Below are positions 29,600 to 52,125 of a stretch of DNA of 64,000 nt, piece after piece; position 1 is the first letter of the stretch, and every line of letters starts with the position of its first letter. The stretch covers positions 2,208,001 through 2,272,000 of the forward strand of contig CAVYGB010000008.1 in the NCBI GenBank assembly GCA_963767925.1, given 5' to 3'. The stretch is from an uncultured delta proteobacterium. GTDB taxonomy: Bacteria; Myxococcota_A; Polyangia; Fen-1088. A model generated the notes under the pieces. The model was not told the DNA's origin. It saw nothing but the letters and a program-made list of their open reading frames with translations, and did not search any database. The translations under genes were made by a program, and so were the position numbers.

Positions 29600-29607
29600 C
29601 GCCGCCC

Positions 29608-29958
29608 TCAGCGCCCCGGCTCGCTCCCGCGAGCCTCGAGCGAGACCTCGACCCGGCCGCTGCGCAGCCGGACCGGATAGACCCGCACGGCGACCTCCGG
29701 ATCGTCGAGGCAACGCCCGCTGCGCAGGTCGAAGCTGTGCTTGAAGAGCGGCGAGGCCACCTTCGGCGCGCCGGCCCGGTCGCCCACGATCCCCCGCGAC
29801 AGCACGAAGGCCTTGGCGAAGGGGTCGAAGTTCGCGAGGGCGTGGAGCTCGTCGGCGCCCACCCGGAAGATCGCCACCTGCTTGCCGCCCAGCAGGGCGC
29901 AGACGCCCGTGTCGGGCAAGATGTCGTCGACCGCGCAGACGTCGAGCCAGGGCCCCAT
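29608..29958 (-). CDS. nirD: Nitrite reductase [NAD(P)H] small subunit
   Basis: [20 protein letters not shown]...[24 protein letters not shown]. Confidence 0.92.
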
Positions 29959-32511
29959 CAGATCGCCTCCTTCACCAGGGGGGCCTTCTCGCTCCAGCCC
30001 GCCGTCCGGTGCTGGCGGCGCAGGGGCACCGTGACGATGCTGGGATCGACGGCCTCGCTGTTGACGAACGGCCGGAAGCGCTTGAGCTTCTCCGGATCGT
30101 TGATGGTTGTCGTCCACTCGCACTGGTAGCTGTCGACAACCTGCTGCATGTCCCGCTCGAGCTCGGCCCCGATCCCCAGGGCGTCCTCGACGATCACCCG
30201 GCGCAGGTATTCGATGCCCCCCTCCAGCTTGTTCAACCAGGTGGCGGTGCGCTCGAGCCGGTCGGCGGTGCGCACGTAGAACATCAGGAAGCGATCGAGA
30301 TACCGCCGCACACGTCGGCTCGTCGACGTCCGAGGCCAGCAGCTGCCCGTGCTGGGGCTTCATGCCCCCGTTGCCGCAGACGTAGAGGTTGTAGCCCCGC
30401 TCGGTGGCGATGACCCCGAAGTCCTTGCTCTGGGCCTCGGCGCACTCGCGGGCGCAGCCGGAGGCGGCGCCCTTGAGCTTGTGGGGGCTGCGCAGGCCCT
30501 TGTAGCGGTTCTCCAGATCGACCGCCAGGCTGACCGAGTCCTGCACGCCGTAGCGGCACCAGGTGCTGCCCACGCAGGACTTCACCGTGCGCAGGGCCTT
30601 GCCGTAGGCGTGGCCCGATTCGAACCCGGCGGCGATGAGCGCGCTCCAGATGGGCGGGAGCTGGTCCACCCGAGCGCCGAACAGGTCGACCCGCTGAGCG
30701 CCGGTGATCTTCGTGTACAGCCCGAAGCGCTTGGCCACCTCCCCGAGGGCGATGAGCTGGTCGGGTGTGATCTCCCCGCCCGGGACCCGCGGCACCACCG
30801 AGTAGCTGCCGTCCCGCTGCATGTTGGCCAGGAAGCGGTCGTTCGTGTCCTGCAGGCCGACGTGTTCGTCCTTGCCGATGTATTCGTTGAAGGTGGAGGC
30901 CAGGATGGAGGCCACCACCGGCTTGCACATCTCGCAGCCCCGGCCCGCTCCCTGCCGGGCGATGACCTCGTCGAAGGTGCGCAGGTGCTGGACCTTGACG
31001 ATGTGAAACAGCTCCTGCCGGGAGAGGGCAAAGTGCTCGCACAGCCGGTTCGAGACCGCCACCCCCGCCCGCTTCAGCTCCGCCTTGAGGAGGTCGTTCA
31101 GCAGCGGGAGACAGGAGCCACAGCCCGGTGCCAGCGCGGGTGCAGGCCTTGACGTCTCCCAGGGCGCTGAGGCCCTGGCCGGCGATCGCCGCGCAGATGG
31201 CGCCCTTGGCCAGACGTTGTGGCAGCTACAGATGAGGGCGGTCTCCGGCAGCGCATCGACCCCCAACCCGACCGCCCTCCCCCCCTCGCGGCCCGGCGGC
31301 AGGATAAGGTCTTCGGGGCAGGGCGGCAGGGCCACCTTGTTGCGATAGACCCCGTGGAGCTGGCCGTAGCTGCTGGCGTCGCCGACCAGGATGCCACCCA
31401 GCAGGATGCGCTTGTCGGCGCTGACCACCAGCTTCTTGTAGACCCCCGCCGCCGTGTCGGCGACGCTCAGGGTGTGGGCCCCTGGCTCGAGGGCGAAGGC
31501 GTCGCCGAAGCTGGCGACGTCCACCCCGAGCAGCTTGAGCTTGCTGCTCATGTCGAAGGCCGGGGGCAGCCGGGCCCCCTTGCCCAGCAGATCGGCGGCC
31601 GCCACCTCGGCCATCTGGTAGCCGGGGGCCACCAGGCCGTAGGTCCGCCCGTCGTAGGAGGCGCACTCGCCGATGGCGTGGATGTCGGGCCGGGAGGTGC
31701 GGCAGCGGTCGTCGACCGCGAACCCGCCCCGGGGACCGATCTCCAGGCCGCAGGCGCGACCGAGCTCGTCGCGGGGGCGGATGCCCGCCGAGAAGACCAG
31801 CAGGTCGGTCCGCAGCTCGCCGCCGTCGGCGAACAGCAGCGCCCGCACCCGCCCGTCCTCGCTAACGACCTCCTTGCTCGTCATGCCGGTGTGCACCGCC
31901 ACCCCGAGCCCCTCGATGCGCCGGCGCAAGATGGCGCCACCGAGGTCGTCCACCTGCAGCGGCATGAGCCGGGGAGCCTGCTCGACGATGTGGGTCTCGA
32001 GCCCCAGGTTGCGGAGCGCGTTGGCCGCCTCGAGGCCCAGCAACCCACCCCCGATCACCGTCCCCACGTCGCTGCCGGCTGCGTGGGCCGCGATGGCCGC
32101 CAGGTCCTCGATGGTGCGGTAGACGAAGCAGCCGGTCGCCCCCGCCCCCTTGATGGGGGGCACGAAGGGATGAGAGCCGGTCGCCAGGACCAGCTCGTCG
32201 TAGGCGAGCTCCTCGCCGCGGGCGGTGCGGACGATCTTGCGGACCGGATCGATGGCCTCGGCCGCTTCGCCGAGGCGCACCTGCACCCCGGCCGCCCGGT
32301 AACGGTCGGGGGTGGCCAGCGCCAGATCGGCCGCGGCTTTTCCCTCGAACAGCCCCGACAGGTTGACCCGGTCGTAGGCCAGGCGGGGCTCCTCGGCCAG
32401 CACGGTGATGTCGTGGGCCAGCTCGCCGTCCCCGAGGGCGAGGAGGCGCTCGACGAAGTGGTGGCCCACCATTCCGTTCCCGACCACCAGCAGGCTGGAT
32501 CTGCGCGACAT
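29958..32511 (-). CDS. nirB: Nitrite reductase [NAD(P)H] large subunit (frameshifts)
   Basis: [50 protein letters not shown]. Confidence 0.93.
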
Positions 32512-32627
32512 GGCTTCTGTTTCCATCTGTAAGGCGGTGGCTGTTTCCGCCTGGTTGCCCGTCGGTAAAAAACCGGGAAGCGCCCCGTGTCTTGCTGGCA
32601 CTTTTCCCCCGGGCTAAGGTTGCCCAC

Positions 32628-38219: not shown

Positions 38220-38367
38220 GAGACCTCCTCACCGACGCCGCCCACACGTGAAAAGCGGTCTTCTATTTTTTGCCGGCGGATCGCCGAAGTCAATTTCACA
38301 ATCGTGGTGATCGCGTGTACGCCATTGCGTACTTTCACGCGGCCGCCCCGCCGGCGTCGGCGACGGA

Positions 38368-39099
38368 TCAATCGTGGCGCTGGGAAAAGTTGGGCGCGCC
38401 CGCCAGGCGCGCGGCGAGCTCGAGGAGGCCGATCTCCCCCTGCACGAAGGCGTTGTGGCCTCGCCGCCGACACAGCTCTGGGTCTGCCCCGATAGGTACT
38501 GGGCGAGGGTCCCGGCCACACATGCCGCCACCTCGGGCCGGCCCGCCAGCAAGGTGGCGAGCTCCTCCTGTCCGCTCTCGATCGGAAACAACATCTGCCC
38601 GTCCCCACCGACGGGGTATCCCGAGGCGTCGATCGGCGCCCCGTTTTCCCGATCCCGGTAGCGGCCCCCCTCGTCGAAGTGCTCGAAGGGGAAGCCCATC
38701 GGATCGAAGAAGCGGTGACAGGCGCCGCAGGCCCCCTGGGCATGGGCCGCCTCGAAGCGCTCGCGGGTGGTCCTCCAGCCGGTGCCGGGCGGGGGCAGGT
38801 CGGGCACGACCGGGGGCTGCTGTGGGATCTCCGGGATTGACGAACCCGTCCTTGCTGTCGAGCGGATCGGCGATGTCGAGGGTGAAGGCGTCCTTGGCCT
38901 CGGGGAAGACGTCCCGCCCGGGTCGAAGTGCTCGGCGGGCATTCCGTGGGGGACGAAAAACAGGAGCAGCCGGCGGGGCCGCTCGGCGGGCGCCTGGGCC
39001 AGCGCGCGCCGGGACAGCTCGAGCGCCAGCGGCGCGGGGAGCCCGAGGCCGAGAGCCCGGAGGAAGGTTCCGCTGCAGCGGGCGCGAGCCCCGGCTCAT
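38368..39099 (-). pseudogene. Chimeric remnant: DUF1552-like N-terminus joined to a DUF1588/DUF1585-like C-terminus
   Basis: Tat-like R.TFLRALG...RLLLFFVPHGMP, then TTRERFEAAH...CGACH..FDPMGFPFEHFDEGGRYR..ENGAPIDASG; several frame changes. Confidence 0.65.
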
Positions 39100-39150
39100 G
39101 CCCCCAAGCTTGCACCATCACCGCCGGCGCGGGGAGGCGCGTCCGGTCAA

Positions 39151-40485
39151 TCAGGGCGCCGTGACGGACGGCCGACTGCCCACCGCCAGGGTGGGCACCG
39201 GCGCCGCCGCCGGGAGCTTCAGGCTCAACACGAGCAGCGCCTCGACAACGAGGCCCGCCGCCAGGAAGAGCAGCCCCCGCTCGTAGCTCTGGGAGCTGTC
39301 GCGCAGGAGGCCCATCACGTGAGGGCCCGCCCAGCCGCCCAGATTGCCCACCGAGTTGATGAGCGCGATGCCCGCGGCCGCGGCCGCGCCCCCCAGGAAC
39401 ACGGGGGGGATCGACCAGAAGGGTCCCAGGATGGAGCGCTGCCCCACCTGCGAGAGCATGAAGCTCAGCACGATGAGCGGGACGCTCTTCTGGAACGCCG
39501 CCGCCAGGGCCAGGCCGATGGCGGCGGTCATCGCGCAGGCGGCGACGTGTTTCTTGCGCTCGCCGGTGCGGTCGGAGTGCCGGCCGATCAGCACCATGCC
39601 GACCAGCGCCGCCACGAACGGCAGCGCGGTGATGCCCGCCAGCCGGAGCCCGGAGAACCCCGAGGCCTCTCGCAAGATCTTCGGCAAGAAGAGAAACACG
39701 CCGTAGGTGGCCATGTTGTTGAGAAAGTAGATCGCGCACAGGAGGATCACCTTGGGATCCCGCAAGGCCCCGAACCCGCGGTGGGCCTGCCGGGCGGTGC
39801 GCTCGGCGCGATCGCGCTCCATCTCCCGGACCAGCCACTCGCGATCGTCGGCCGGCAGCCAGTGGGCTTGCTCCGGGCGATCGGTCAGGTACTTGAGGGC
39901 GGCGAACCCCAGCACGACCGCCGGGAGGCCCTCGACGAGGAACAGCCACTGCCAGCCGTGCAGGCCGGCGACTCCGTCGAGCTTGAGCAGCCCCTCCGAG
40001 AGGGGAGCCCCCACCAGCATGGCCACCGGGATGGCCATCATGAAGAGGGCGCCGGTCTTGGCCCGCTCGCGGGCCGGGATCCAGTAGGTGAGAAAGAGGA
40101 TCATCCCCGGAAAGAAGCCGGCCTCGGCCAGGCCCAGGAGCACCCGCATGGAGAAGAAGCTCCACTGCCCCACCACGAACATCATCGCCATCGACACCAG
40201 GCCCCAGACGATCATGATCCGCGCGATCCAGATGCGCGCCCCCACCCGTTCCATGATCAGGTTGCTGGGGATCTCGAAGAGGAAGTAGCCGAGGAAGAAC
40301 AGCCCCGCCCCCTGTCCGTAAACGGCATTGCTCATCCCGAGATCTCTCTGCATCGAGTCGGCGGCGAAGCCGATATTGACGCGATCGATGTACGCAATGA
40401 CGTAACAGATGAAGATGAAGGGGACGAGCCGACCCACGACTCGCTGAAAAACTCGGCGCTCGCGCTCTTCGTTCGGCGAAGTCAT
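39151..40485 (-). CDS. MFS transporter, anion:cation symporter (TtuB-like)
   Basis: YIDRVNIGFA, FEIPSNL, LGLAEAGFFPG, GWQWLFLVEGLP; about 12 TM helices. Confidence 0.9.
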   Translation of the reverse strand: MTSPNEERERRVFQRVVGRLVPFIFICYVIAYIDRVNIGFAADSMQRDLGMSNAVYGQGAGLFFLGYFLFEIPSNLIMERVGARIWIARIMIVWGLVSMAMMFVVGQWSFFSMRVLLGLAEAGFFPGMILFLTYWIPARERAKTGALFMMAIPVAMLVGAPLSEGLLKLDGVAGLHGWQWLFLVEGLPAVVLGFAALKYLTDRPEQAHWLPADDREWLVREMERDRAERTARQAHRGFGALRDPKVILLCAIYFLNNMATYGVFLFLPKILREASGFSGLRLAGITALPFVAALVGMVLIGRHSDRTGERKKHVAACAMTAAIGLALAAAFQKSVPLIVLSFMLSQVGQRSILGPFWSIPPVFLGGAAAAAGIALINSVGNLGGWAGPHVMGLLRDSSQSYERGLLFLAAGLVVEALLVLSLKLPAAAPVPTLAVGSRPSVTAP

Positions 40486-40577
40486 ACCTGAATCCTCCTC
40501 GCTCGACAGCAGCGCACCCTACCACGGGCCCGGTCTCGCGAATCGAGAAGACGAAACCTGGGATACCATCCGCGGCC

Positions 40578-41621
40578 ATGCCGGCCTACGTCACCTCGCC
40601 CCGCATGCGTTATCGAGAAGAGGAGCTGTGGTTCGCCGCCTCGCTCTACGTCGGAAGCTGGGAGGAGGACTTCCACGAGCTCATGCTGAACGACGACCTG
40701 CGCATGAACGCCTACGAAAGAGCGATCAAGGCGCGGGTGCGACCGGGCATGGCGGTGGCGGACCTGGGAACGGGCACCGGCATCCTGGCGCAGTGGGCGC
40801 TGGAGGCGGGGGCCCGGGTGGTCTACGGGATCGACGTCAGCGCGCCGATCCTGCAACGGGCGGTCGAACGGATCGGCGCGGCTGGCTTCTCCGATCGCTT
40901 CCAGACGTTCGCCGCCCTCTCCTACGACGTGACCCTGCCCGAGCGGGTGGACGTCCTCCTCTCCGAGATCCTGGGAAACCGGGCGGACAACGAGGGGATG
41001 GTCGCCATCCTCAACGACGCCCGCTGGCGGTTCCTCGCCGAGGGTGGCCACATGTTGCCGAGCCGGGCGCGGTCCTGCCTCGTCCCGGTGGCGGCCGCCC
41101 AGGCCCACGCCCAGGTCTGCAGCCGGCAGTGCCAGGGGCTCTCCGATCGCTACGACCTCGACGAGCTGCTGAAGAGCGTCGGCCTGCACAGCCCCTTCCA
41201 GCTCTCCTTCGACGTCATCCTTCCCTCGGCGACCCACCTGGCCGCGCCCCTGCCCGTCGTCGACTTCGCCTTCGCGGGCGAAGACCCCGAGGACTACCGG
41301 CGGGAGCTGTCGTTCCCGGTCGACCGGGCGGGCCCCTTCACCGGCTTCAAGGGCTACTTCACCGCCGACCTGGCGCCGGGGGTGGTCCTCGACATCTCGG
41401 GAGACGACATTGCAGGACGGAAGACGAGCGACTCCTGGAAGCACAGCTACCTGCCGGTCGAGCGCCCGATCGACGTCCGTCCCGGAGACGTCATCGAGCT
41501 GACCTATGCGCGGGCCCGTCCCGCGCGCGAGGACTCCCCCTTCCGCCAGTATTATTCGTGGACCGGCGTCGTACGGCGGGACGGGCGCCCCCTGGCTCGC
41601 TTCGAGAATCAGATGACGTGA
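40578..41621 (+). CDS. SAM-dependent methyltransferase with protein-arginine-methyltransferase (PRMT) architecture
   Basis: FHELMLNDDLRMNAY, VADLGTGTGIL, VDVLLSEILGNRADNE (double-E loop), FLAEGGHMLP, FTGFKGYF, SDSWKHSYLP. Confidence 0.85.
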   Translation: MPAYVTSPRMRYREEELWFAASLYVGSWEEDFHELMLNDDLRMNAYERAIKARVRPGMAVADLGTGTGILAQWALEAGARVVYGIDVSAPILQRAVERIGAAGFSDRFQTFAALSYDVTLPERVDVLLSEILGNRADNEGMVAILNDARWRFLAEGGHMLPSRARSCLVPVAAAQAHAQVCSRQCQGLSDRYDLDELLKSVGLHSPFQLSFDVILPSATHLAAPLPVVDFAFAGEDPEDYRRELSFPVDRAGPFTGFKGYFTADLAPGVVLDISGDDIAGRKTSDSWKHSYLPVERPIDVRPGDVIELTYARARPAREDSPFRQYYSWTGVVRRDGRPLARFENQMT

Positions 41622-41839
41622 GCGAGCGGCGCCCGGGACGGGCGGTTCGCTCTTCACCGGCAGCGAACGGGCGGGACCGATTCCCGAAATACCGATTGAC
41701 GGAGAGCCCGGTTCGTTGGAAACGTCGAAAGGCCCCAGGTCAAAGCGAAATCCAGCGGCCTGGCAGGCCTTCCCGTGTGTCCGCGCTTTTCAAATGCTAC
41801 ACACGGGACTCACGAGTTGTGGTTTGTTAGGAGCGAGTC

Positions 41840-43411
41840 ATGACCAAACTTACTGGTCTCGCCAAGGCGATGCTCGGGCTGCTGGTTGGCGGCGCCCTGG
41901 TTGCAGCCGCCTTCACCCATGGGGATCGTCTGAAGGCCCTCATCGGGAGCGTGGGCGGCAAGAAGCCAGCGACGACGGCGTCCCCCGCCCGGGAGCGACC
42001 GCCCGGTCAGATCGTCATCGGGCTGTGCGAGTGGCCCGGGCAGATGCCCTTCGTGATCGCGAACGGGGGCCTCACCACCCAGGCCGGATCGGCCGCGGCC
42101 AGCGAAGGCCTCGACATGAAGATCGTCTTCATCGATGACCCGGTGAAGAAGAACCAGGCCCTCCTCGACGGCACCATCGACGTGGTCTGGTCGACGGTCG
42201 ACGAGATGCCGATCACGATGGCCACCTACCGCACGGCCAACGTGGCGGTGAAGGCGTTCATGCACCTCGACTGGTCCCGGGGCGGTGACGCCTGCGTGGC
42301 CAGCGCCGAGATCAAGTCGGTCGAGGATCTGCTCGGCAAGAAGGCAGCCACCCTCCTCTTTTCGCCCGAGCACACCCTGTTCGAGTTCATGATCACGAAC
42401 TCCCGCCTGACCGCCGCCCAGATGGCGCGGGTGCGCGCCGACGTCAGCTTCTCGCCCGACGATCCGCTGCACGCGCGACGCCTGTTCGTCGAGCGGAAGG
42501 TCGACCTGGCCTGCGTGTGGGAGCCGGACGTGAGCCTGGCCATCACCAGCCGTCCAGGGGCCCATCGCCTCTTCTCGACCGCCGACGCCACCGAGCTGCT
42601 CACCGACGTCCTGCTGGTTCGCCAGGAGCTGCTCGACAGCAAGCCGGCGCTCATCGAGAAGGTCGCGCGGATCTGGTTCGCCGGTGTGGCCAAGGCGGAG
42701 GCCGACCGCCCGGCGGCGGCCCGCTTCATCTCCTCGAACGTCCCGCGCTTTCGGGACGAGCTCGGTCGCGAGCAGACCCTGCGTTCGTTCGAGTGGGTCC
42801 GCTGGTCGGATCTCGCCGAGAACGTGAAGTTCTACGGCCTCGACGGGGGCCGGCCGGCCTTCGATCGCGTCTACAACCAGGCCGACGCGATCTGGATGAA
42901 CTATCCGCAGGCCGAGGTGAAGGACCGCTTCGCCCCCGTGACCTTGCGCGACGATCGGATCATTCGCCGGATCTGGGAGACCACTGGCAAGAAGGCGCCG
43001 ATCGCCCGCAACGAGAAGTACCAGGATGGCACCGCCCTCACCGGGGCCGCCATCTTTGCCAAGCCCGTCTCCATCAACTTTCGCGGTGGCAGCTCCGACC
43101 TCGACGCCGAGGCGATGGCCACCTTGAACAGCGAGCTCTTGCCCCAGCTCGAGATCGCCCGCGGCATGTACCTGCGGATCGAGGGGAACACCGACTCGCA
43201 GGGGTCGGCCAGCTCCAACCTCAAGCTCTCGGAACGACGAGCCAAGTCCATCCTGGAATACCTCGTGTCGCGCGGAATCGAGCGCACGCGCATCATCGCC
43301 CGGGGCAACGGCGCCACCCGGCCCATCGCCAGCAACCGGACCCCGGAGGGGCGCGCGCTCAATCGGCGGACCGAGGTCCTCTTCATCCCCTCGAAGCGTT
43401 CCCCGTCCTGA
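41840..43411 (+). CDS. NMT1/SsuA-like substrate-binding domain fused to a C-terminal OmpA domain
   Basis: [32 protein letters not shown]; OmpA motifs IEGNTDSQG...NLKLSERRA...NRRTE. Confidence 0.85.
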
Positions 43412-43438
43412 CCCGGCCCCGCCCCGCCAGCCAGCGCT

Positions 43439-44383
43439 CTAGAAGAGCGACCAGAGCAGGCTCACAACCAGCGCCCCGGCGATGCCTCCCAGCACGAGAG
43501 GCCGCCACCCGCCGGTGAGCCAGCCGACGCTGGCCTTCGTGGCCGTCGCCGCCCGCACCCTCCAGCCGGGTCGGGAGAAGGCCTGCAAGACGGTCGCGTC
43601 GAGCTTGGCGGGACCGTTCGCGGTGGTCTCCCGGGCGAGGTACTGACCGCCGAAGGTCAACCACTTCGGGGTCGGCGCCGTCACCAGCCTGGGGTCGATG
43701 ACGGTCGAGAGCTCGGTCTCCGTGGTGACCTTCGTGCCGGGGGCCCGGGCGACCGGGGCGGGACGTTTCACCTCGATGATGCCCCGGGCGTTGTCGAGCA
43801 GGGCCGTCGAGATGCTCAACCGCAGGTGCGGGATGCCCTCCTCGTCACTCGGCTCGAGCATCACCGAGTCGAGGGTGCCCTCCCGGATCGTGCCCTCCGC
43901 CTGCTGGACGAAGGTGATACGGACCGGCGAGTGCAGCCGCATGAACGGGAGCCGGGTCGCCAGCCGGACCTCCTCGCCCACCACCGAGGCCTGGCAGCGG
44001 ATGGGGGCGGGCATGCCCTCGAACCAGACATCCACAGGCTGGCGCTCGCCCTCCACGGGGTCGACGAGCTTTCGCAGCAGGTCCAGATCCCGCTTCTCCA
44101 TGTCGAGGAACTCGATCCCCGCGCCGGGGCTGCGCAGGGGGGCCTTCTTGGAGACCTCGCGCACCCAGGCCACCCGCCCCCGCACCGTCCGGGACTGGCG
44201 CGCCAGCGAGAACCGGCAGAATACTTCGCTGCCCGGCTTCGGAAGATCGGCCGCCGAGATGGTGACGAAGACCCCCAGCGGGCTGAGATTTTGCACCCGG
44301 GCCACGACATCATCCAGGCGGCCCGCCGTCTTGAGGAAGATCTTGCTCTGGTAAACGATGCGATGCTGTCGCCTCAGCTCCAT
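43439..44383 (-). CDS. PilZ-domain protein with C-terminal TM helix
   Basis: RRQHR and NLSPLG c-di-GMP motifs, GRVAWVR, GAGIEF. Confidence 0.8.
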   Translation of the reverse strand: MELRRQHRIVYQSKIFLKTAGRLDDVVARVQNLSPLGVFVTISAADLPKPGSEVFCRFSLARQSRTVRGRVAWVREVSKKAPLRSPGAGIEFLDMEKRDLDLLRKLVDPVEGERQPVDVWFEGMPAPIRCQASVVGEEVRLATRLPFMRLHSPVRITFVQQAEGTIREGTLDSVMLEPSDEEGIPHLRLSISTALLDNARGIIEVKRPAPVARAPGTKVTTETELSTVIDPRLVTAPTPKWLTFGGQYLARETTANGPAKLDATVLQAFSRPGWRVRAATATKASVGWLTGGWRPLVLGGIAGALVVSLLWSLF

Positions 44384-45017
44384 CCGGCTCTCTCTCCGAC
44401 TCGTCCAGGGGCGAGAAGGCCCCCCATGATGCCGGAAGTCGGTGGGATGGCAAGGAGGGATACCCGCCTGCGTCGCCGCTGCAATCGGTACCGCCGAGGC
44501 AACTCGGGGGCTATGTCCCGACCGCGGGATTTCACTTGCGTGGGCGGGCGGTTGGCCGACGCCGGGGGTGCAGTTGCCCCTTGCCTTTACCCCTGAGACC
44601 GGTTACGGGTGATCCCAAGGGCCCCTCCCTTGGCAGGCTGTCCGCAGGCCTGCAAAATCAGCGCGGTTCATTGCCGAGTACCCAACGCCGGGGCCCACCA
44701 GGGTCCCCGCGCCCGGGCCAAATTGGGGCAGGATTGGGGGCAAAACAGGCCCCAGATCAGGCCGCAAATCGCCTCAAGTCAGGCAATGACAGACCCGGTC
44801 CTCCCACGATTCTTGGCGGCGCCCGCCGTTACTGATTTTTTCCAGGAACGATACTTGGGAGCTACATGAAACGTGTTCTGCTCCAGCGGGGACGCAGCAT
44901 GATCCAGCTCACAAGACATTCCCAGGTCCGCTCTCAGCCACGCTCCAGTTGCACGCTCGCCGCTCTGTCGCGCGGGCCCGGCACGGAACGCAGCTGAGGG
45001 GCCGGCAAAGGAGCCCA

Positions 45018-45839
45018 ATGCGCCACCGAACGGCCCATACCTCACCCTGGAAGGTGGTCCTTTTCAACCAGTACAACCTGCTGTTCCTGGCGGGAGCGGC
45101 GGCCTTTTCCCTCGCCCTGGCCTCTCGCTGGCCGGTGATCATCGGCGCGGCGGGCGAGGGCCTCTGGCTGTTTGCCGCCCTCACCAGCCGGGGCGTGCGG
45201 CGCTGGGCGATTCGCCACGTGCTCGAACAGGATCGGGCCCACCGGTCCGCCGAGGGCGCCGCGGTCGTGCAAACCCTCGAGGGTGAATATGCCGCCCGCT
45301 GCGAGAGGCTCGAGACCATCGGGTCGGACATCCGCCGGCTGGTCTGGGACCGGGGGCTCGAGAGCGCCCTGTTCGCCGGGGACGAGAACCGTCTCGAGTC
45401 GCTCCTGCTCGGGTTCAGCCGGATGGCCGCCCTGCACCAGCGCCTCTCCCGGTTCGTCGGGACCTCCTCGCCGGGCCAGCTCGAGGAGGAGCTTCTGGGG
45501 CTCGGCCAGTCCCTCTCCAGCGAGAAGAATCCCTCGGTACGGTTCCTCCTCCAGCAGGCCTTGACCATCGCCCAGCGCCGCTTCGATCAACAGGAGCAGC
45601 TCGGCAGTCAGCTCCGCTTGCTGGGCGTGCGAATGGGCACCCTCGAGATGTCGCTCGACTACCTCCGCTCCCAGATCTTCAGCGGTCGATCGAGACAGGA
45701 GGTCTCGGCCGAGATCGCCCAGATGGTCACCAGCCTCGGGTTCCTGATGGAGATGGAGGCCGAGGTGAACACCTCGGTCGAGCGCATCCAACCCAAGGTG
45801 GTGCCCGTCAGCCAGCCCCAGATCGTGCGCGGCTCGTAA
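45018..45839 (+). CDS. Hypothetical membrane protein (two N-terminal TMs, helical coiled-coil C-terminus)
   Basis: AAGGAG RBS before ATG 45018; FNQYNLLFLAGAAAFSLAL hydrophobic segment. Confidence 0.7.
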   Translation: MRHRTAHTSPWKVVLFNQYNLLFLAGAAAFSLALASRWPVIIGAAGEGLWLFAALTSRGVRRWAIRHVLEQDRAHRSAEGAAVVQTLEGEYAARCERLETIGSDIRRLVWDRGLESALFAGDENRLESLLLGFSRMAALHQRLSRFVGTSSPGQLEEELLGLGQSLSSEKNPSVRFLLQQALTIAQRRFDQQEQLGSQLRLLGVRMGTLEMSLDYLRSQIFSGRSRQEVSAEIAQMVTSLGFLMEMEAEVNTSVERIQPKVVPVSQPQIVRGS

Positions 45840-45844
45840 GACCG

Positions 45845-46633
45845 TCACGGGCCCGGGACCAGGCGATCGTCGGCGATCACGCCTCGGCGCCGCAGCTCAC
45901 GCTTGAGGCCGGCGTACCAGCGGTCGCCCAGGAGGTCGTGCGCCTCGCATTGTCGCGAGATCTCGGCCTGGAGCGCCTCGCTGGGGGACTGGAACATCGA
46001 GCGACAGAGCTGGGGCTCGAGGTTGGACAGCGGCAGGACGTAGCCCTGGACCCCCGGCGTGGTCGCCAGGCAGAGATGCTCCCAGCCCTGGAAGACCGGA
46101 ACCCCGGTCCCGGCTGACACGAGGGCCCGGGTCAGCTCCACCGAGCCGCTGGAGTCCTTGACCCCCACCACGTCTCCCGACCGGCACAGCTCGACGAGGG
46201 TCTCGAGTCCCAGCGCGGTCCCGGCGAGCTTTGGCTCGTTGTAGAGAAAGAGCGGCAGTCCGCTCTCCCGGGCGATGGACCGGTACTGGGCCCGCAGCTC
46301 AACCTCCGAGAGCCCCCGGCCGAAGAGCGGGGGGACCACCACCGCCTCCACAGCCAGCTCCCGGGCCAGTTTGGCCCGCTCGATCACCTCGGCGATGGTC
46401 GGCAACACGATGCCCGCCAGGACCGGCAAACCCCGGGCGAACCGGCGCGTCCAGGTCACCATGTCCCGCCACTGCGCCGCCGACAAGCGCCAGCCTTCGC
46501 CCGAGCTGAGCGCCGGGATCAAGCCGGACGAGGCTGGCCGGACCGATTCGATCAGGCGCTCCACGCTGGCGGCGCAGACCTCTCCGCCGGCAGCCAGGGG
46601 GGTTATCAAAGGGACGATCACATCCTGGTACAC
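45845..46633 (-). CDS. rohR: DHDPS-family aldolase, RohR-like retro-aldolase
   Basis: VPLITPL, LSSGEG, LFLYNEP, VGVKDSSG; GTG start 1 nt after the upstream stop, GGAGGA RBS; third gene of the operon. Confidence 0.78.
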   Translation of the reverse strand: MYQDVIVPLITPLAAGGEVCAASVERLIESVRPASSGLIPALSSGEGWRLSAAQWRDMVTWTRRFARGLPVLAGIVLPTIAEVIERAKLARELAVEAVVVPPLFGRGLSEVELRAQYRSIARESGLPLFLYNEPKLAGTALGLETLVELCRSGDVVGVKDSSGSVELTRALVSAGTGVPVFQGWEHLCLATTPGVQGYVLPLSNLEPQLCRSMFQSPSEALQAEISRQCEAHDLLGDRWYAGLKRELRRRGVIADDRLVPGP

Positions 46634-46634
46634 G

Positions 46635-47138
46635 TCAGGCTCCTCCGAAGACGAGGGGAACACGAAGCTGGAGGGCGTTCTGGTAGAGCGCCTCCAGCTC
46701 CCGGGGGAAAGCAACCTCGCCCCGGACCTCCGGCGGCGTGCGGATCGGCAAGTCCACCGCCCCCAGGAGGGTGGGATCGAGGGTGTAGACCAGGGCCCCG
46801 CGCTCGAGGGCCCGCGCCACCAACAGCCGGTGCAGCACCGGGAGGCGCTGCAACCGGCTGTCGGAGGTCGCCAGCCGCAAGGTGCTGTCCTCGTACCCCT
46901 CCCGGCTCAGGCAGCGCAGGCTCTGCAGGCTGTCCATGAACGGGTAGTAGAGATCCTGCACCTCGCGGCTGAATGTCCAGATGATGTCGTCGCAGCGGCC
47001 GACGTGATCCCAGGTCATCAGGATCACGGAATCCCGTCGGCTCGCCACGAAGTTCTTGCACCGGAGCCGCTGGGGCTCGGCGGCCGCGTTCATCCCGAGG
47101 AAGACGCTGTAGTCGATATATTCGCGCTCACTGTCCAT
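46635..47138 (-). CDS. rohQ: RohQ-like guanidinoacetaldehyde cyclodehydratase
   Basis: YIDYSVFLGMN, VGRCDDIIW, QDLYYPFMD, FP..LEALY...L.LRV motifs as recalled for RohQ; overlaps the rohP stop. Confidence 0.72.
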   Translation of the reverse strand: MDSEREYIDYSVFLGMNAAAEPQRLRCKNFVASRRDSVILMTWDHVGRCDDIIWTFSREVQDLYYPFMDSLQSLRCLSREGYEDSTLRLATSDSRLQRLPVLHRLLVARALERGALVYTLDPTLLGAVDLPIRTPPEVRGEVAFPRELEALYQNALQLRVPLVFGGA

Positions 47139-48354
47139 ACCGTTGGATCTCCAGCGCGAGCTGCCGCGCGGCCGCCCGGAACATCCTCGGCTCCCGGGCC
47201 AGCGCCACCCGGACGAAGCGGTTGCCCTTGTGGCGCTCGTTCCAGAAGAAGAAGTTCCCCGGCAGGACGTAGACGTCCCGGGCGAGCAGCTTGCGATGGA
47301 AGGTGAGGGCGTCCATGCCGAGCCCCGAGATATCCAGCCAGGCCACGCTGACGTTCACCCGTGGCTTGCAGTCCCGCACCGGCGTGTCGGCCAGGGCCAG
47401 GGCGAGCTCGCTCCGGTTGGTGGTGATGACGTTGCGGACCGAGGCGAACCCGTCGCGCTCCGAGTCACGCAGGTAGCGGGTCAACATGTTCAGAACGAAG
47501 GGCGAGACATTGAGCAGCACGCTGGTGTGGATGTCGTAGATCGCAGGGTACATGTCCCGGCTGCTCATGAGGATGGCGGCCTTGGCGTCCTGGAGCGGCC
47601 AGACCTTGCCGGTGTCCTCGATGACGATGTACGAGACGCCCGACGATTCGAGCAGCTCGTAGACGTCGAACCATTGCGCCGAACCATCCATCAGCGCAAA
47701 CGAGGCGAAGCAACGGTCGATTATCAACAGCTTGCCGTGATCCACGCAAAAACGAACCACCTCCTCGAAGCCGCGACGTCCCTCCGTCAACAGGGTGAAG
47801 CCGGTCGGGTTGTTGGGATCGACGAGGAAGAGCGCGTCGGTCGTCACCTTCTCCCGCAGGTTCTGGTAGATCTTGTCGACGTCGGCGAGGTCGCTCTCCG
47901 GGAGAGAATTCAACGGAATTCGCTGGTTCTTCAACAGATCGTGCAAATTGTCGAAGCAGGGCTCGATCAGCGTGACCGACATCTTCCGTTGCATGAGGTA
48001 CATGGCCGCCACCATGGTCGAGATCGAGGAGGCGTAGGCCAGCAGGGCCCGGCCGGTCTGCAGCGCGGTCGGCTGCCGTTGCAACTCGAAGAACGCGGTA
48101 ATGAAGTCCTGCTCGATGTCCCGCTGCAGGCTACCTTCCGACTCGTACCAGAGGTCGGGGAGGCTCTGGACGATCTGTTGCTGGGTCAGCGATTGCCGCT
48201 GATGGGTGTGGGCGTCGGCGAGGTTGTGGCGCCGGGTGAGAGCGTCGATCTCGTGCTGGGTGATGTCTGCGTGTCGGTCGGCCAGCGGATTGGGAGCAGG
48301 CTTGGAGGGGCGACGGGCAACGGCAGGACGAGAGAAGGAAGAAGATGAGATCAT
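47128..48354 (-). CDS. rohP: PLP/O2-dependent L-arginine oxidase/hydroxylase (RohP/MppP family)
   Basis: TQHEIDAL...NLADAHTHQ, LIEPCFDNL, FLVDPNNPTG, IEDTGKVWPLQDAK (PLP Lys), VLPGNFFFW, RVALARE; GGAGG RBS before ATG 48354. Confidence 0.88.
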   Translation of the reverse strand: MISSSSFSRPAVARRPSKPAPNPLADRHADITQHEIDALTRRHNLADAHTHQRQSLTQQQIVQSLPDLWYESEGSLQRDIEQDFITAFFELQRQPTALQTGRALLAYASSISTMVAAMYLMQRKMSVTLIEPCFDNLHDLLKNQRIPLNSLPESDLADVDKIYQNLREKVTTDALFLVDPNNPTGFTLLTEGRRGFEEVVRFCVDHGKLLIIDRCFASFALMDGSAQWFDVYELLESSGVSYIVIEDTGKVWPLQDAKAAILMSSRDMYPAIYDIHTSVLLNVSPFVLNMLTRYLRDSERDGFASVRNVITTNRSELALALADTPVRDCKPRVNVSVAWLDISGLGMDALTFHRKLLARDVYVLPGNFFFWNERHKGNRFVRVALAREPRMFRAAARQLALEIQRYGQ

Positions 48355-48923
48355 GGAAAGCCTCCTGGGCTGGATGTGAACGGGGGTGCGGCTTTTCCTA
48401 AGCAAGTCTGGGTTATAATGCTTCGTATAATCAATTTATGCCACGGAGCGCCTGGGTGTTGGAAGGTTCCAATCGCTGCGGGCGAGCCTGATTCGAGCGT
48501 AGGTGCCTGTACGTAACGTGTGTGAACCATCTACTGCGGGCATCACACGGGTGCTCATGGCCCCGTCGGGGGACCCTCCAGGTGGACCCAACAGCGCCCG
48601 ACATTCCCGGAGTGGGGCACACAACGGTCGACACCTGGGCCCTTGGATCGTCTACCAGAGTCAGGTCCCCCTGCAAAACCGCCGAGCCAATTGTTACCCC
48701 CTACACGTGCAATCAAAACTGAGTCCCCGTGTGGCGATCGCTCGGCCGCTCTCTGTACGTCAGGCCCCGAAGCTGGGCTTTTTCCCCGCCCTCTCTACCG
48801 TCCTGGCGGGAGGCCAGCGTGACGTCGGCTCACCGAGGAAGACACGGCCCTACATATCGCCTCAACGACAATTGCTGAGGACGCCCGACAGGGGACAGCC
48901 CCGAGACGGCGCTCGGCGCGCGG

Positions 48924-49799
48924 TCAGCGGGTGACGAGGGTGCCGACGCCCCTCTCGGTGAACAGCTCGACCACCACGCTATGAGGGGCTCGGCCGTCCA
49001 CGACGTGTACGGCTTCGACCCCGCCCTCGATCGCACGCAGGATGGCCTGGGCCTTGACGGCCATGCCGCCTTTCACCGCGCGCCCCTCCTGCAAGCGGCC
49101 GCCGAGATCGGTCGCCCGCAGCTGGGTCAAGAGCTGCCCGTTCTCGTCGAGGATGCCGGGCACGTCGGTCAGATAGATGAGCTTCTGCGCCTTGAGGGCC
49201 ACCGCGATCTCGGCCGCGGCCACGTCGGCGTTGATGTTGTAGGTGGTCCCGTCGAGGGCGGCGCCGATGGGAGAGACGACGGGGATGTAGCTCTTGTCGA
49301 TGCACATCTCGAGCACGTCCGGGTGGACGGCCTCGACGTCGCCGACCAGGCCGAGGTCGGGTTTACCCGGGCGAGGGGCCTGCTTGCGGGCCTGCAGGAG
49401 CCGCCCGTCTTTACCCGAGAGGCCCATCGCCGAGCCACCCAGCGCCTGGATGAGACCGACGATCTCGCTGTTCACCCGCCCGGTGAGCACCATCTCGACG
49501 ACCTTCATCTCCTCGGGACCGGTGATCCGCTGGCCGTCGACGAACTCGCTCTTCTGCCCCAGTCGCTCGAGGGTGCGGTTGATCTCCGGTCCTCCGCCGT
49601 GGACCACCACCGGCCGCAGGCCGGCCGCCCGCAGCAGCACCACGTCCTGGGCGAAGGCTCGCTTGAGCTCGGGATCCACCATGGCAGCGCCCCCGTATTT
49701 GATGACCGCCCGGGTGCCGGAGAAGCGCTGGATGTAGCGGAGCGCCGAGACCACCAGCTCGCGCTGATTGGCCAGGCTGTCGTCGGAGGTGTCGTTCAT
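48924..49799 (-). CDS. argB: Acetylglutamate kinase
   Basis: VIKYGGAAM, VVHGGGPEI, YNINAD, LTDVPGI, GGMAVK. Confidence 0.95.
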   Translation of the reverse strand: MNDTSDDSLANQRELVVSALRYIQRFSGTRAVIKYGGAAMVDPELKRAFAQDVVLLRAAGLRPVVVHGGGPEINRTLERLGQKSEFVDGQRITGPEEMKVVEMVLTGRVNSEIVGLIQALGGSAMGLSGKDGRLLQARKQAPRPGKPDLGLVGDVEAVHPDVLEMCIDKSYIPVVSPIGAALDGTTYNINADVAAAEIAVALKAQKLIYLTDVPGILDENGQLLTQLRATDLGGRLQEGRAVKGGMAVKAQAILRAIEGGVEAVHVVDGRAPHSVVVELFTERGVGTLVTR

Positions 49800-50893
49800 G
49801 GCAGATGACCCACGAGATCGAGGAGCCCCGAGGTTTCGGGGAGGCCGAACATCAGATTGGCGTTCTGGACCGCCTGGCCGGCGGCGCCCTTGACCAGGTT
49901 GTCCATCGAGGCGAACACGACGGCGATCCGTCGGTCGGCGTCGGCCCTGGCGCCCATCACGACCCGGTTGGTCCCCACCGTGGCGGCCAGGTTGACCTTC
50001 TCGGCATCGGTCTGGCGCAGGAACGGCTTTCCCTCGACGAAGGTGGCCAGGGCCCGCGTGACCGCTGCGTTGGCATCGCCGGCCGCGGCCGCCGAGGTGA
50101 GGCGGGCATAAGCGGTGGCGAGGATCCCCCGGCGCACCGGCAGCAGGTGGGCGGTGAAGACGACCCGCAGGCCCGGGCTCCCTCCCAGGGCCAGGATGCG
50201 CTCGATCTCCGGCGTGTGCTGATGGCGCAGGACCCGGTAGGCCCGGAAGTCGCCGTCCACTTCGGAGAAGGACAGCTCCTCGGTGGCCTTGCGCCCCGCC
50301 CCCGTGGTCCCGCTCTTGGCGTCGATGATGATCGAGCCCGGGTCGACCAGCCCGGCCCGGAGCAAGGGCAACACCGCCAGGGCCGAGACCGTGGGGTAGC
50401 AGCCGGGATTGGAGACGAGGCGGGCGGCGGGCAGCCGCTCGGCCGTCCCGGTCGCCTCGGGCAAGGAGTAGACCGCCTCGCCGAGCAGGCCCGGCTGGCC
50501 ATGGGCGAACCCATACCAGGCCGGGTACTCGGCCGCCGACAACCGGAAGCCGCCCGACAGATCGACGACCCGCGTGCCCGCTGCCAGCGCCCGCGGGGCC
50601 AGCTCGATCGAGGCTTCGGGCGGGGTGCAGAGGAACAGCACCTCGACCTCGCCGAACGCGTTTTTCCCGTCGGCTTGCGAGAGGCAGGTGACCTCGGCGG
50701 CCGGGCCAGGCAAGGCCAGGCGGTCCCCCAGGCTGGCGCCGGCCCACTTGTCCGAGGTCGCCATCACCGGCGCAAACACCGGGTGTCGCGCCAGGATGCG
50801 CACCAGCTCCATCCCGGAGTAGCCAGAGACACCGACGATGCCGGCGCGGATTCGACGCTCACCCACGGACGCCGCGTTCGGCCCTTTGATCAT
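49796..50893 (-). CDS. argC: N-acetyl-gamma-glutamyl-phosphate reductase
   Basis: GVSGYSG, VDLSGGFR, SNPGCYPT, SGTTGAGR, HQHTPEI, DNLVKGAAGQAVQN; ATGA overlap with argB. Confidence 0.95.
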   Translation of the reverse strand: MIKGPNAASVGERRIRAGIVGVSGYSGMELVRILARHPVFAPVMATSDKWAGASLGDRLALPGPAAEVTCLSQADGKNAFGEVEVLFLCTPPEASIELAPRALAAGTRVVDLSGGFRLSAAEYPAWYGFAHGQPGLLGEAVYSLPEATGTAERLPAARLVSNPGCYPTVSALAVLPLLRAGLVDPGSIIIDAKSGTTGAGRKATEELSFSEVDGDFRAYRVLRHQHTPEIERILALGGSPGLRVVFTAHLLPVRRGILATAYARLTSAAAAGDANAAVTRALATFVEGKPFLRQTDAEKVNLAATVGTNRVVMGARADADRRIAVVFASMDNLVKGAAGQAVQNANLMFGLPETSGLLDLVGHLP

Positions 50894-50904
50894 GGCGGGC
50901 AACT

Positions 50905-52125
50905 ATGGCGGCCTTCGCCCGGCCAGACAAGGGGCGACGCCGTCGTGCGACGTCGTGCGCAAGCCCGGACGCTCGCGCCACCATCGCCCGTGTCGCCCGG
51001 CAGTGGGCCTCTCCCCGGCCCGACCCGGGTTATCCTCCACGCGCCTTGCCCCCGGCCTTCCTCGCACTCCTGCTGCTTGGCCAGCAGCCCGTCCTCGCCG
51101 ACGCGCCCTCGCCCGGTTCGCCTGCCGTGCCGGCGCCGGGGCCGGCCCGGGGGATCCTGCCCACCGCGGCGGCGATCGTACCGGGCCTCCTGCTTCACGG
51201 CAGCGGCCACTTCGTAGCAGGAGACCGCCGGACCGCGCTCCGGCTCCTGGCGGCCCAGGGCATAGGGCTGGGCGGCATGGTGGCGGGTCTGGCTGGCCTG
51301 GCGGTGACCGGGGCCTCGCCCCGCTTCGTTTCCCCCATCATCCTGCTCACGGCCGCCGGCGCGGCCCTCTTCACCACCTCCGCCCTCGCCGACCTCTACG
51401 GCGTGCTCGCCCCGCCCGGTGGCACCGGAGCGGCCCCCGCCGATCTCCCCGCCCTGGAAGCAGGCGGAGGCGCCCTGCTGGTGCGGAACCCGGTCTTCCC
51501 CTACCGCTGGCTGGCCGCCGTCACGCTGGACGCCCGCGCCGGCCGCTGGCGCCTGTGGCCGCGGCTGTACGGAACCGCAAACGGCCAGACGGTGCGGGCG
51601 GAGCTGCGGGGCAGTTACCGCCTCACCGGCCTCCGCCCCAGCTCCGTCGACCTCTCGGGCGCCCTGGTGCACCACCGGGAGGGCGGGGACGTGATCCCGT
51701 TCGGCACCACCCTGGCGGAGCTGAGCCTCGACGGGCGCACCCGGCTCGACGCCCTGGCGCCGTCCCTGGCCGGCTCGTTCCTGGACTGGAGCGGCGGACT
51801 GGCCTTCGGCGGCATGTACTTCGGCGGCGCCGTCGACGCGCTCGAGGCCACCGACCTGCTGCTGGCCCGCTTCGGCTTCGGGTTCTTCCTCGGCCGTTCG
51901 AGCGACCCCCGGGGCGAGGTGGTGTTCGGCTACGACCACCGGCACGACGACTTTGCCGGTGGCCTCAAGATGCCCGGTCTCGGCAGCGGCCCCGCGGGGA
52001 GCTTTGGCCTCGAGGCTTCGATCTACGTCCGGCCCCGCTGGGGCCTGCGGGCGGTGGCCCGGGCCGGGTCGGCCCACGTGGTCGGGCTGTCGCTCCTGTA
52101 TCGGCGTCCGCCGGAGGGACGATGA
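50905..52125 (+). CDS. Hypothetical membrane protein (helical TMs followed by a beta-strand-rich domain); start uncertain
   Basis: VPGLLLHGSGHF motif plus hydrophobic helices and alternating aromatic strands; ATGA overlap with the next gene. Confidence 0.6.
   Translation: MAAFARPDKGRRRRATSCASPDARATIARVARQWASPRPDPGYPPRALPPAFLALLLLGQQPVLADAPSPGSPAVPAPGPARGILPTAAAIVPGLLLHGSGHFVAGDRRTALRLLAAQGIGLGGMVAGLAGLAVTGASPRFVSPIILLTAAGAALFTTSALADLYGVLAPPGGTGAAPADLPALEAGGGALLVRNPVFPYRWLAAVTLDARAGRWRLWPRLYGTANGQTVRAELRGSYRLTGLRPSSVDLSGALVHHREGGDVIPFGTTLAELSLDGRTRLDALAPSLAGSFLDWSGGLAFGGMYFGGAVDALEATDLLLARFGFGFFLGRSSDPRGEVVFGYDHRHDDFAGGLKMPGLGSGPAGSFGLEASIYVRPRWGLRAVARAGSAHVVGLSLLYRRPPEGR

Follow-up and report, generated by a model that had tools for sequence, protein, structure and literature searches.

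A rohPQR operon without rohS and rohT in a Myxococcota-like bacterium: a predicted route from L-arginine to 2-aminoimidazole

Introduction

What would a bacterium make from L-arginine with the first three enzymes of the azomycin pathway if the genes for the nitro-forming step are missing? This question is raised by a 64-kb stretch of DNA from an uncultured delta proteobacterium (C8:2208001-2272000; here called the window, to which all coordinates without a contig or locus name refer), in which three genes on the minus strand, 48354..45845, stand in the order rohP-rohQ-rohR. The genome (G000) is assembled in 13 contigs with 9.34 Mb in all and is 83.8% complete; a second genome of the same genus (G401, 86% complete) served for comparison.

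The intermediates of the azomycin pathway are 4-hydroxy-2-ketoarginine, pyruvate, and guanidinoacetaldehyde; RohS is a heme-oxygenase-like di-iron N-oxygenase, and RohT is a Rieske ferredoxin. The route from L-arginine to 2-aminoimidazole via RohP, RohR, and RohQ has been reconstituted, and RohS oxidizes the amine to the nitro group (PMC10724926, accessible part). The five-gene rohPQRST set of Streptomyces eurocidicus ATCC 27428 is named as an azomycin cluster in the accessible part of PMC12713392. A preliminary description of the window, based on its letters alone, had proposed a rohPQR operon without rohS and rohT, whose product would be free 2-aminoimidazole or a differently tailored derivative, unless the genes served arginine catabolism. 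The observation is confirmed, and the interpretation is supported, with corrections: with a probability of about 0.7, the three genes form a functional, horizontally acquired operon that would lead from L-arginine to 2-aminoimidazole and stop there.

Results

Three coupled genes orthologous to rohP, rohQ, and rohR

Table 1. Positions of the roh genes, the linked methyltransferase gene, and the bordering features in the window
Feature	Position	Strand	Length and basis of assignment
rohP orthologue, O2-/PLP-dependent L-arginine oxidase/hydroxylase (predicted)	47128..48354	-	408 aa; PDB 6c3a, 59.6% identical to S. eurocidicus RohP
rohQ orthologue, DUF6190 cyclodehydratase (predicted)	46635..47138	-	167 aa; PF19689, RohQ 9c5w, fold
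rohR orthologue, DHDPS-family retro-aldolase (predicted)	45845..46633	-	262 aa; PF00701, 44.8% identical to S. eurocidicus RohR
PRMT-like SAM methyltransferase, roh-cluster type	40578..41621	+	347 aa; 53% identical to S. eurocidicus gene product
Presumed promoter spacer 5' of rohP	48355..48923		569 bp; 62.0% GC
argC (50902..49796) and argB (49799..48924), boundary only	48924..50902	-	TIGR01850, TIGR00761
Convergent open reading frame (ORF), family-less, boundary only	44949..45839	+	296 aa; no Pfam/NCBIfam match

The three genes (Table 1) are translationally coupled, as is evident from the 11-nt overlap of rohQ with rohP and from the GTG start of rohR at 46633, 1 nt past the rohQ stop. rohP begins with the ATG at 48354, with AGGAGG 8 nt upstream, and stops at 47128; at the other end of the operon, the stop of rohR lies 5 nt from that of an unrelated convergent gene. 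The tight coupling and the convergent end had both been claimed in the preliminary description and were borne out, as were the motifs quoted there (here HNLADAHTHQ and IEDTGKVWP in the RohP-like protein, VGRCDDIIW and YYPFMD in the RohQ-like protein).

For comparison, we surveyed the best 80 of 241 RohQ-containing genome loci (L003-L082). The S. eurocidicus ATCC 27428 locus (L042), read as P-Q-R followed by a PF14518 oxygenase and a Rieske ferredoxin, was taken as the reference, and columns at least 97% conserved across the 66 complete P-Q-R-S-T loci are called near-invariant.

The first protein, an enzyme dependent on pyridoxal 5'-phosphate (PLP), matched PDB entry 6c3a with an E value of 6e-143 and 479.6 bits. 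The entry is titled "Uncharacterized protein," and we take it to be S. cattleya RohP; independently of this assumption, the enzyme is 59.6% identical to the RohP of the reference locus. Other PDB matches were 7n79 (1.1e-54, 189.1 bits), MppP of the enduracididine pathway (5dj1; 1.9e-52, 181.7 bits), and ordinary aminotransferases (best E 1.4e-8, 37 bits or less), and the score against the MppP equivalog model TIGR04462 was 168.9 bits, below the cut-off of 450. These scores and the RohP tree described below set the enzyme apart from MppP and from ordinary transaminases and place it among the RohP proteins, as had been supposed. It keeps 116 of the 122 near-invariant RohP columns, including K250 of DTGK, the PLP-binding lysine (the changed ones are Q92, S109, W228, V251, V326, and F352), and, judged by its sequence, is expected to oxidize L-arginine to 4-hydroxy-2-ketoarginine.

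The second protein, of 167 aa, is related to RohQ both by sequence and by fold, in line with the earlier assignment. It matched PF19689 (DUF6190) with 1.4e-50 and 172.1 bits (cut-off, 25) over positions 1-161 of 165, matched the RohQ structure 9c5w with E 2e-22, and is 41.9% identical to S. eurocidicus RohQ. Its AlphaFold model (mean confidence [pLDDT], 92.1) superimposed on 9c5w and 9oq8 with template modeling (TM) scores of 0.84-0.86 and root mean square deviations of 2.1-2.6 Å, whereas the next-best folds, of the PIN/VapC type, reached a TM score of about 0.6 or less. The protein is the only DUF6190 member in G000, and 26 of 28 near-invariant RohQ columns are kept, the changes being H to Q72 and S to A155; the RohQ of G401 retains His at the position equivalent to Q72.

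The third protein has the dihydrodipicolinate synthase (DHDPS) fold (PF00701, 3.3e-29) and is 44.8% identical to S. eurocidicus RohR. Against the dapA model TIGR00674 it scored 95 bits, below the cut-off of 206. Near-invariant RohR columns are kept in 24 of 27 cases, K159 and Y131 among them. K159, the Schiff-base lysine, lies in GVKDSS; its counterpart in PDB 3na8 is the lysine of VKEST. On this evidence from alignment, the third protein is a RohR orthologue and not DapA itself.

No rohS or rohT in the window or in the assembled genome

The statement of the preliminary description that no N-oxygenase or iron-sulfur partner lies nearby held for the entire 64-kb window, which contains neither an N-oxygenase gene nor a small Rieske ferredoxin gene; its only Rieske-type domain belongs to a NirB-like nitrite reductase (29608..32601). 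Nor did the genome as a whole yield a rohST pair. A profile built from 13 RohS sequences of collected loci was run against the complete G000 assembly, translated in all six frames, and gave 0 matches at E ≤ 10, while it recovered 8/8 control loci outside the profile at E ≤ 1e-100. The same alignment found no RohS in G000 or G401, and RohS sequences of Streptomyces, Sorangium, and Paraburkholderia, used one by one as queries, gave nothing better than E 0.87 in G000. For RohT, the search of G000 returned only generic Rieske domains (E about 1e-5), none near the operon; these lie inside open frames of ~540 and ~1060 codons, at C8:611517 and C13:205923, far from the window.

No member of the AurF family was found in the genome. 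The sole PF14518 protein of G000, of 254 aa (C1:75714-76232; L002:1474-2238, minus strand), resembles CADD (CT610), 4-aminobenzoate synthase, and BesC (E about 1e-8); it was considered as a substitute for RohS and rejected, being unlike RohS (BLASTP E 0.89).

Gene order agrees with these searches: rohS stands directly after rohR in 66/66 complete loci, whereas here the fully assembled junction holds the convergent gene. The absence of RohS and RohT implies that azomycin is not made. Azomycin might still be produced if an N-oxygenase gene lay in unassembled DNA, the genome being 83.8% complete, or belonged to a family that was not searched, as N-oxygenases occur in several unrelated families (AurF, CmlI, and PrnD types, according to the accessible part of PMC13133933). 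We consider this improbable, given that RohS was found in neither of the two genus assemblies, which are independent of each other (83.8% and 86% complete), that no AurF member was found, and that a convergent gene occupies the site at which every complete locus has rohS.

roh loci with and without the nitro-forming genes

A full-length RohP is encoded in 68 of the surveyed loci, of which 42 have the order P-Q-R-S-T with a homologue of the PRMT-like methyltransferase gene of the window (see below) within 10 kb, 24 have P-Q-R-S-T without such a gene, and 2 have P-Q-R only. Two more are cyanobacterial P-Q-R fragments with RohP truncated by the contig end, and 10 lack RohP, including four loci of a Nostoc type and four of a Woesearchaeota type. 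The number of complete loci without the methyltransferase, 24, is an upper bound, some loci ending soon after rohT (e.g., L022); these 24 form one clade (support, 99). Where present in complete loci, the methyltransferase gene usually stands right after rohT, or before rohP (Sorangium and Paraburkholderia).

The two P-Q-R-only loci are that of G401 (L003) and one from Kitasatospora (L038). The latter is nested among complete clusters and thus represents a recent loss of rohS and rohT. The Woesearchaeota-type loci (L018:9021-12267; also L019, L036, and L044) lack RohP, RohS, and RohT; they encode RohQ and RohR together with a Glu/Leu/Phe/Val-type dehydrogenase and a family-less protein of 326 aa. 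Together with the other loci devoid of rohS and rohT, they show that RohQ-centered systems without the nitro step exist in several lineages.

The Nostoc-type loci (L004:7419-15044; also L005, L006, L014, and L084) combine genes for a glutathione S-transferase, the PRMT-like methyltransferase, RohQ, a fusion of RohS with a Rieske domain (PF14518 plus PF00355), a class-V aminotransferase, and a DUF6014 protein, and contain neither RohP nor RohR. Among metagenomic sequences, one protein (P0034) carries DUF6190 and DHDPS domains in a single chain, that is, a RohQ-RohR fusion, and one contig (L086:181-2741) has the order P-R-Q, not P-Q-R. A metagenome scan for RohQ relatives of 58-70% identity gave one close locus, of 1.8 kb.

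Restriction to one genus, origin, and maintenance

Of 401 genomes in a sample of the phylum, G000 alone had DUF6190. Of 31 relatives, 2 had RohP, namely, G000 and G401 (85% identity), and none of 17 genomes representing 17 further genera of the family had it; a single one of the 18 family genera searched carries the operon. In a tree of 69 RohP sequences, those of the window and of G401 paired with a support of 100 on a long stem (0.68), outside the actinobacterial clade and near Paraburkholderia and Sorangium, their exact position being weakly supported.

Horizontal acquisition of the operon is supported, mainly by this distribution across genomes. The preliminary description had suggested acquisition from the A/T richness of rohP and its upstream DNA. 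The A/T richness is real but modest: the GC content is 63.1% in rohP and 62.0% in the spacer, compared with 67.1% in rohQ, 70.6% in rohR, and 70.8% in the whole window. Moreover, the third-position GC of rohP (0.87) is close to that of its neighbors (0.89-0.92), so that the dip resides mostly in codon positions 1 and 2. The acquisition proposed earlier is retained on the strength of the distribution; composition lends it hardly any support and was set aside as evidence.

Between G000 and G401, dN/dS was 0.15 for rohP, 0.30 for rohQ, and 0.24 for rohR at a dS of 0.65-0.90, and six flanking genes gave 0.13-0.33 at a dS of 0.61-0.78. This divergence indicates that the common ancestor of the two genomes already had the operon, which has since been kept under purifying selection without rohS and rohT. 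By this comparison of coding sequences, it is maintained, not decaying. The missing rohS and rohT, the H-to-Q72 change in RohQ, and the Kitasatospora locus, which shows that such losses occur, would suit another view, in which the operon is what is left of an azomycin cluster and is decaying without a function. We find this barely credible in view of three intact frames in two genomes at that degree of synonymous divergence, with dN/dS of 0.15-0.30, and of the retention of the catalytic lysines and most invariant columns.

A PRMT-like methyltransferase gene close to the operon

The "differently tailored derivative" of the preliminary description gains concrete content from a gene that it had missed. 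This gene, on the opposite strand, is 4.2 kb away from rohR, past the 296-aa ORF, a PilZ gene, and an OmpA/NMT1-like gene, and encodes an S-adenosylmethionine (SAM)-dependent methyltransferase that resembles protein arginine methyltransferases (PRMTs), with PRMT6 and PRMT2 as its best PDB matches (E 2e-20). The protein is 53% identical (2e-113) to the product of a gene in S. eurocidicus (L042:12433-13506) that overlaps the rohT stop by 4 nt. It falls inside a roh-linked clade (support, 100), branching basally, as its RohP does, and a branch of 4.5 separates this clade from 33%-identical paralogues elsewhere in G000 and G401. In the phylum sample of 401 genomes, 1 had an orthologue-level match to the methyltransferase; after it, the best match was 39% identical. 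Since both the RohQ-type operon and this methyltransferase are rare and yet lie 4.2 kb apart, a chance neighborhood is unlikely.

The methyltransferase accompanies RohQ in every surveyed locus that carries it, including loci without P and R (Nostoc) and without S and T (the window), which suggests the substrate or product of RohQ as its target. Its SEILGNRADNE stretch has two glutamates nine residues apart and resembles the "double-E loop" of PRMTs. From such features of sequence, the methyltransferases of the roh-linked clade possibly act on a guanidino nitrogen.

At the corresponding site of G401 the gene is absent; the site holds a 29-residue possible remnant (48% identity; E 3e-4 in a tiny search of 850 nt). 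As G401 keeps rohPQR without the methyltransferase, the operon does not need this gene. In their longest-contig sizes (10871, 9939, and 22019), three metagenomic relatives of RohQ (58-66% identity) agree with three of the methyltransferase (60-68%); taken by themselves, these sizes hint that the two genes share contigs and that the pairing is common in this environmental clade. In the open-access literature searched, as far as its texts were accessible and with Hedges & Ryan 2019 and Wei et al. 2025 outside the scope, neither a rohPQR-only cluster nor a roh-linked methyltransferase is described; the accessible texts present a five-gene roh cluster and make no mention of the methyltransferase.

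These data bear on the possibility that the pathway does not end with 2-aminoimidazole and that the nearby PRMT-like enzyme N-methylates it, or enzymes encoded elsewhere take it over, to give a tailored derivative as the real product. Membership in the roh-linked clade 4.2 kb from rohR, the occurrence of each feature in 1 of 401 phylum genomes, a basal position near Paraburkholderia that mirrors that of RohP, the PRMT matches in the PDB, and the equal contig sizes would all fit such a fate. We nevertheless regard it as unlikely. rohPQR has been under selection in G401 without the methyltransferase, of which there is at most the short possible remnant, and S. eurocidicus has the methyltransferase gene yet is known for unmethylated azomycin. 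Furthermore, the presence of both relatives on the same contigs is deduced from sizes alone, and no genes for nonribosomal peptide synthetases, polyketide synthases, or ligases lie within the window.

Neighboring genes

The argC and argB genes upstream of the operon, which the preliminary description had not mentioned, scored above the cut-offs of their models (317.5 bits for TIGR01850 and 245.3 bits for TIGR00761). Within the family, argB sequences share 64-88% identity, and genomes devoid of roh genes also show the order pnp-ORF-argC-argB. In G401, a gene of the PSD/DUF1592 family on the opposite strand separates argB from rohP. The adjacency of the arg genes to the operon is therefore incidental, given that pnp-argC-argB is kept without roh genes and that G401 has this intervening gene. 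argC-argB was accordingly rejected as a dedicated arginine supply, being a vertically inherited housekeeping pair of the family. The 296-aa convergent ORF was likewise rejected as a pathway member, its homologues (31-40% identity) being found in roh-less family genomes.

The arg genes enter into another explanation, according to which the operon serves arginine catabolism, harvesting pyruvate and leaving 2-aminoimidazole as waste. The predicted reaction does release pyruvate, and the operon does adjoin argC and argB. We judge this explanation very improbable. Apart from the incidental nature of the adjacency, only 3 of the 6 carbons of arginine would be recovered, with 3 of the 4 nitrogens ending in 2-aminoimidazole; the selection on a dedicated cyclase (dN/dS, 0.30) suggests that the pathway serves to make the heterocycle; and the operon is confined to one genus of the family.

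The spacer upstream of rohP gave no Rfam match at E ≤ 1 and contained no sigma-70-like or terminator-like site, and the 2.2 kb at the equivalent place in G401 did not resemble it. Within 38000-52000, no riboswitch or other RNA element, promoter, terminator, or flanking repeats were found. Where the window has just the 569-bp spacer, G401 carries a 577-aa protein with PSD/PSCyt domains (L121:12376-14109; DUF1587, DUF1595, DUF1592, DUF1588, and DUF1585).

Two other parts of the window deserve mention. The genes at 25638-32601 form a block resembling a nitrate/nitrite reduction set: they encode a molybdopterin oxidoreductase, a DmsC-like anchor, and a 4Fe-4S protein, along with a NirB-type nitrite reductase of 997 aa to which a Rieske-like domain is fused. 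On the minus strand at 9528-19878, two ORFs with tetratricopeptide (TPR) repeats (2354 and 1304 aa) have longest frames that overlap by ~630 nt.

Discussion

If the chemistry of the Streptomyces enzymes (PMC10724926, accessible part) is carried over to the operon, the first step would be the conversion of L-arginine by RohP, with PLP and O2, to 4-hydroxy-2-ketoarginine. RohR, as a Schiff-base aldolase of the DHDPS family, would split this compound into pyruvate and guanidinoacetaldehyde, and RohQ would accelerate the cyclodehydration of the latter to 2-aminoimidazole. The pathway would end with the free amine or a derivative of it, for which the PRMT-like methyltransferase 4.2 kb away is the best tailoring candidate. 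Provided that the operon is expressed, the likely product is 2-aminoimidazole, possibly N-methylated.

Several points weigh against a functional operon that stops at 2-aminoimidazole. The assembly being 83.8% complete, an unlinked oxygenase gene could sit in unassembled DNA, and an N-oxygenase might also belong to an unrecognized family. The RohQ-like protein has Gln72 where at least 97% of 66 RohQ proteins have His. The methyltransferase gene is three unrelated genes away, on the other strand, and missing from G401. Finally, a search for RNA runs containing the stretch listed none.

We tentatively propose, as a possibility rather than an expectation, that the methyltransferase is a hitherto unrecognized sixth member of the roh system acting on the guanidine unit that L-arginine, guanidinoacetaldehyde, and 2-aminoimidazole have in common, and that rohPQR together with it would make a secreted N-methyl-2-aminoimidazole or the free amine. 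If so, a predatory soil bacterium would produce a small cyclic-guanidine metabolite that stands on its own and does not serve as a precursor of an antibiotic.

The enzymology is already known, and truncated clusters are common. 2-Aminoimidazole has so far been treated as a precursor of azomycin; an operon selected to stop there would make the amine, or its methylated form, a natural end product. The rohPQR genes described here would extend the pathway into the Myxococcota, and the three enzymes would offer a ready means of turning arginine into 2-aminoimidazole enzymatically. A PRMT-like methyltransferase goes with most roh clusters, and the question of its substrate is relevant to azomycin producers too.

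The closest known system is the azomycin cluster rohPQRST of S. eurocidicus, S. cattleya, and Pseudomonas, as far as the accessible sources describe it. P, Q, and R are orthologous, with identical order and coupling, and the same chemistry is expected up to 2-aminoimidazole; a methyltransferase homologue lies within 10 kb in S. eurocidicus and in 41 others of the 66 complete loci. Unlike these clusters, the window has no rohS or rohT, and its product would bear no nitro group; the methyltransferase gene lies outside the operon, and the host is Myxococcota-like.

The enduracididine genes MppP/MppQ/MppR share with the window a homologous first enzyme, an O2-/PLP-dependent arginine oxidase (5dj1, 1.9e-52). 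The enduracididine pathway uses MppR, which is acetoacetate-decarboxylase-like, and a transaminase. In contrast, the window enzyme scores below the MppP equivalog cut-off (168.9 versus 450), and its partners are a DHDPS aldolase and a DUF6190 protein.

Among the other loci without rohS and rohT, those of Kitasatospora (L038) and of a cyanobacterial metagenome-assembled genome (L007) have P-Q-R, and the four Woesearchaeota loci have Q-R; the archaeal loci differ from the window in having the Glu/Leu/Phe/Val-type dehydrogenase and the 326-aa protein in the place of RohP. For the methyltransferase, a precedent comes from streptozotocin biosynthesis, in which SznE/StzE, an arginine-guanidino N-methyltransferase, works with the di-iron oxygenase SznF (PMC11705231, accessible part). 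As described there, SznE/StzE offers a chemical precedent for methylation of a free guanidino group beside a heme-oxygenase-like di-iron (HDO)-type N-oxygenase. Set beside these systems, the locus represents a known pathway in changed form, found in a host lineage that is new for it, and adds a conserved accessory methyltransferase that is not described in the literature searched.

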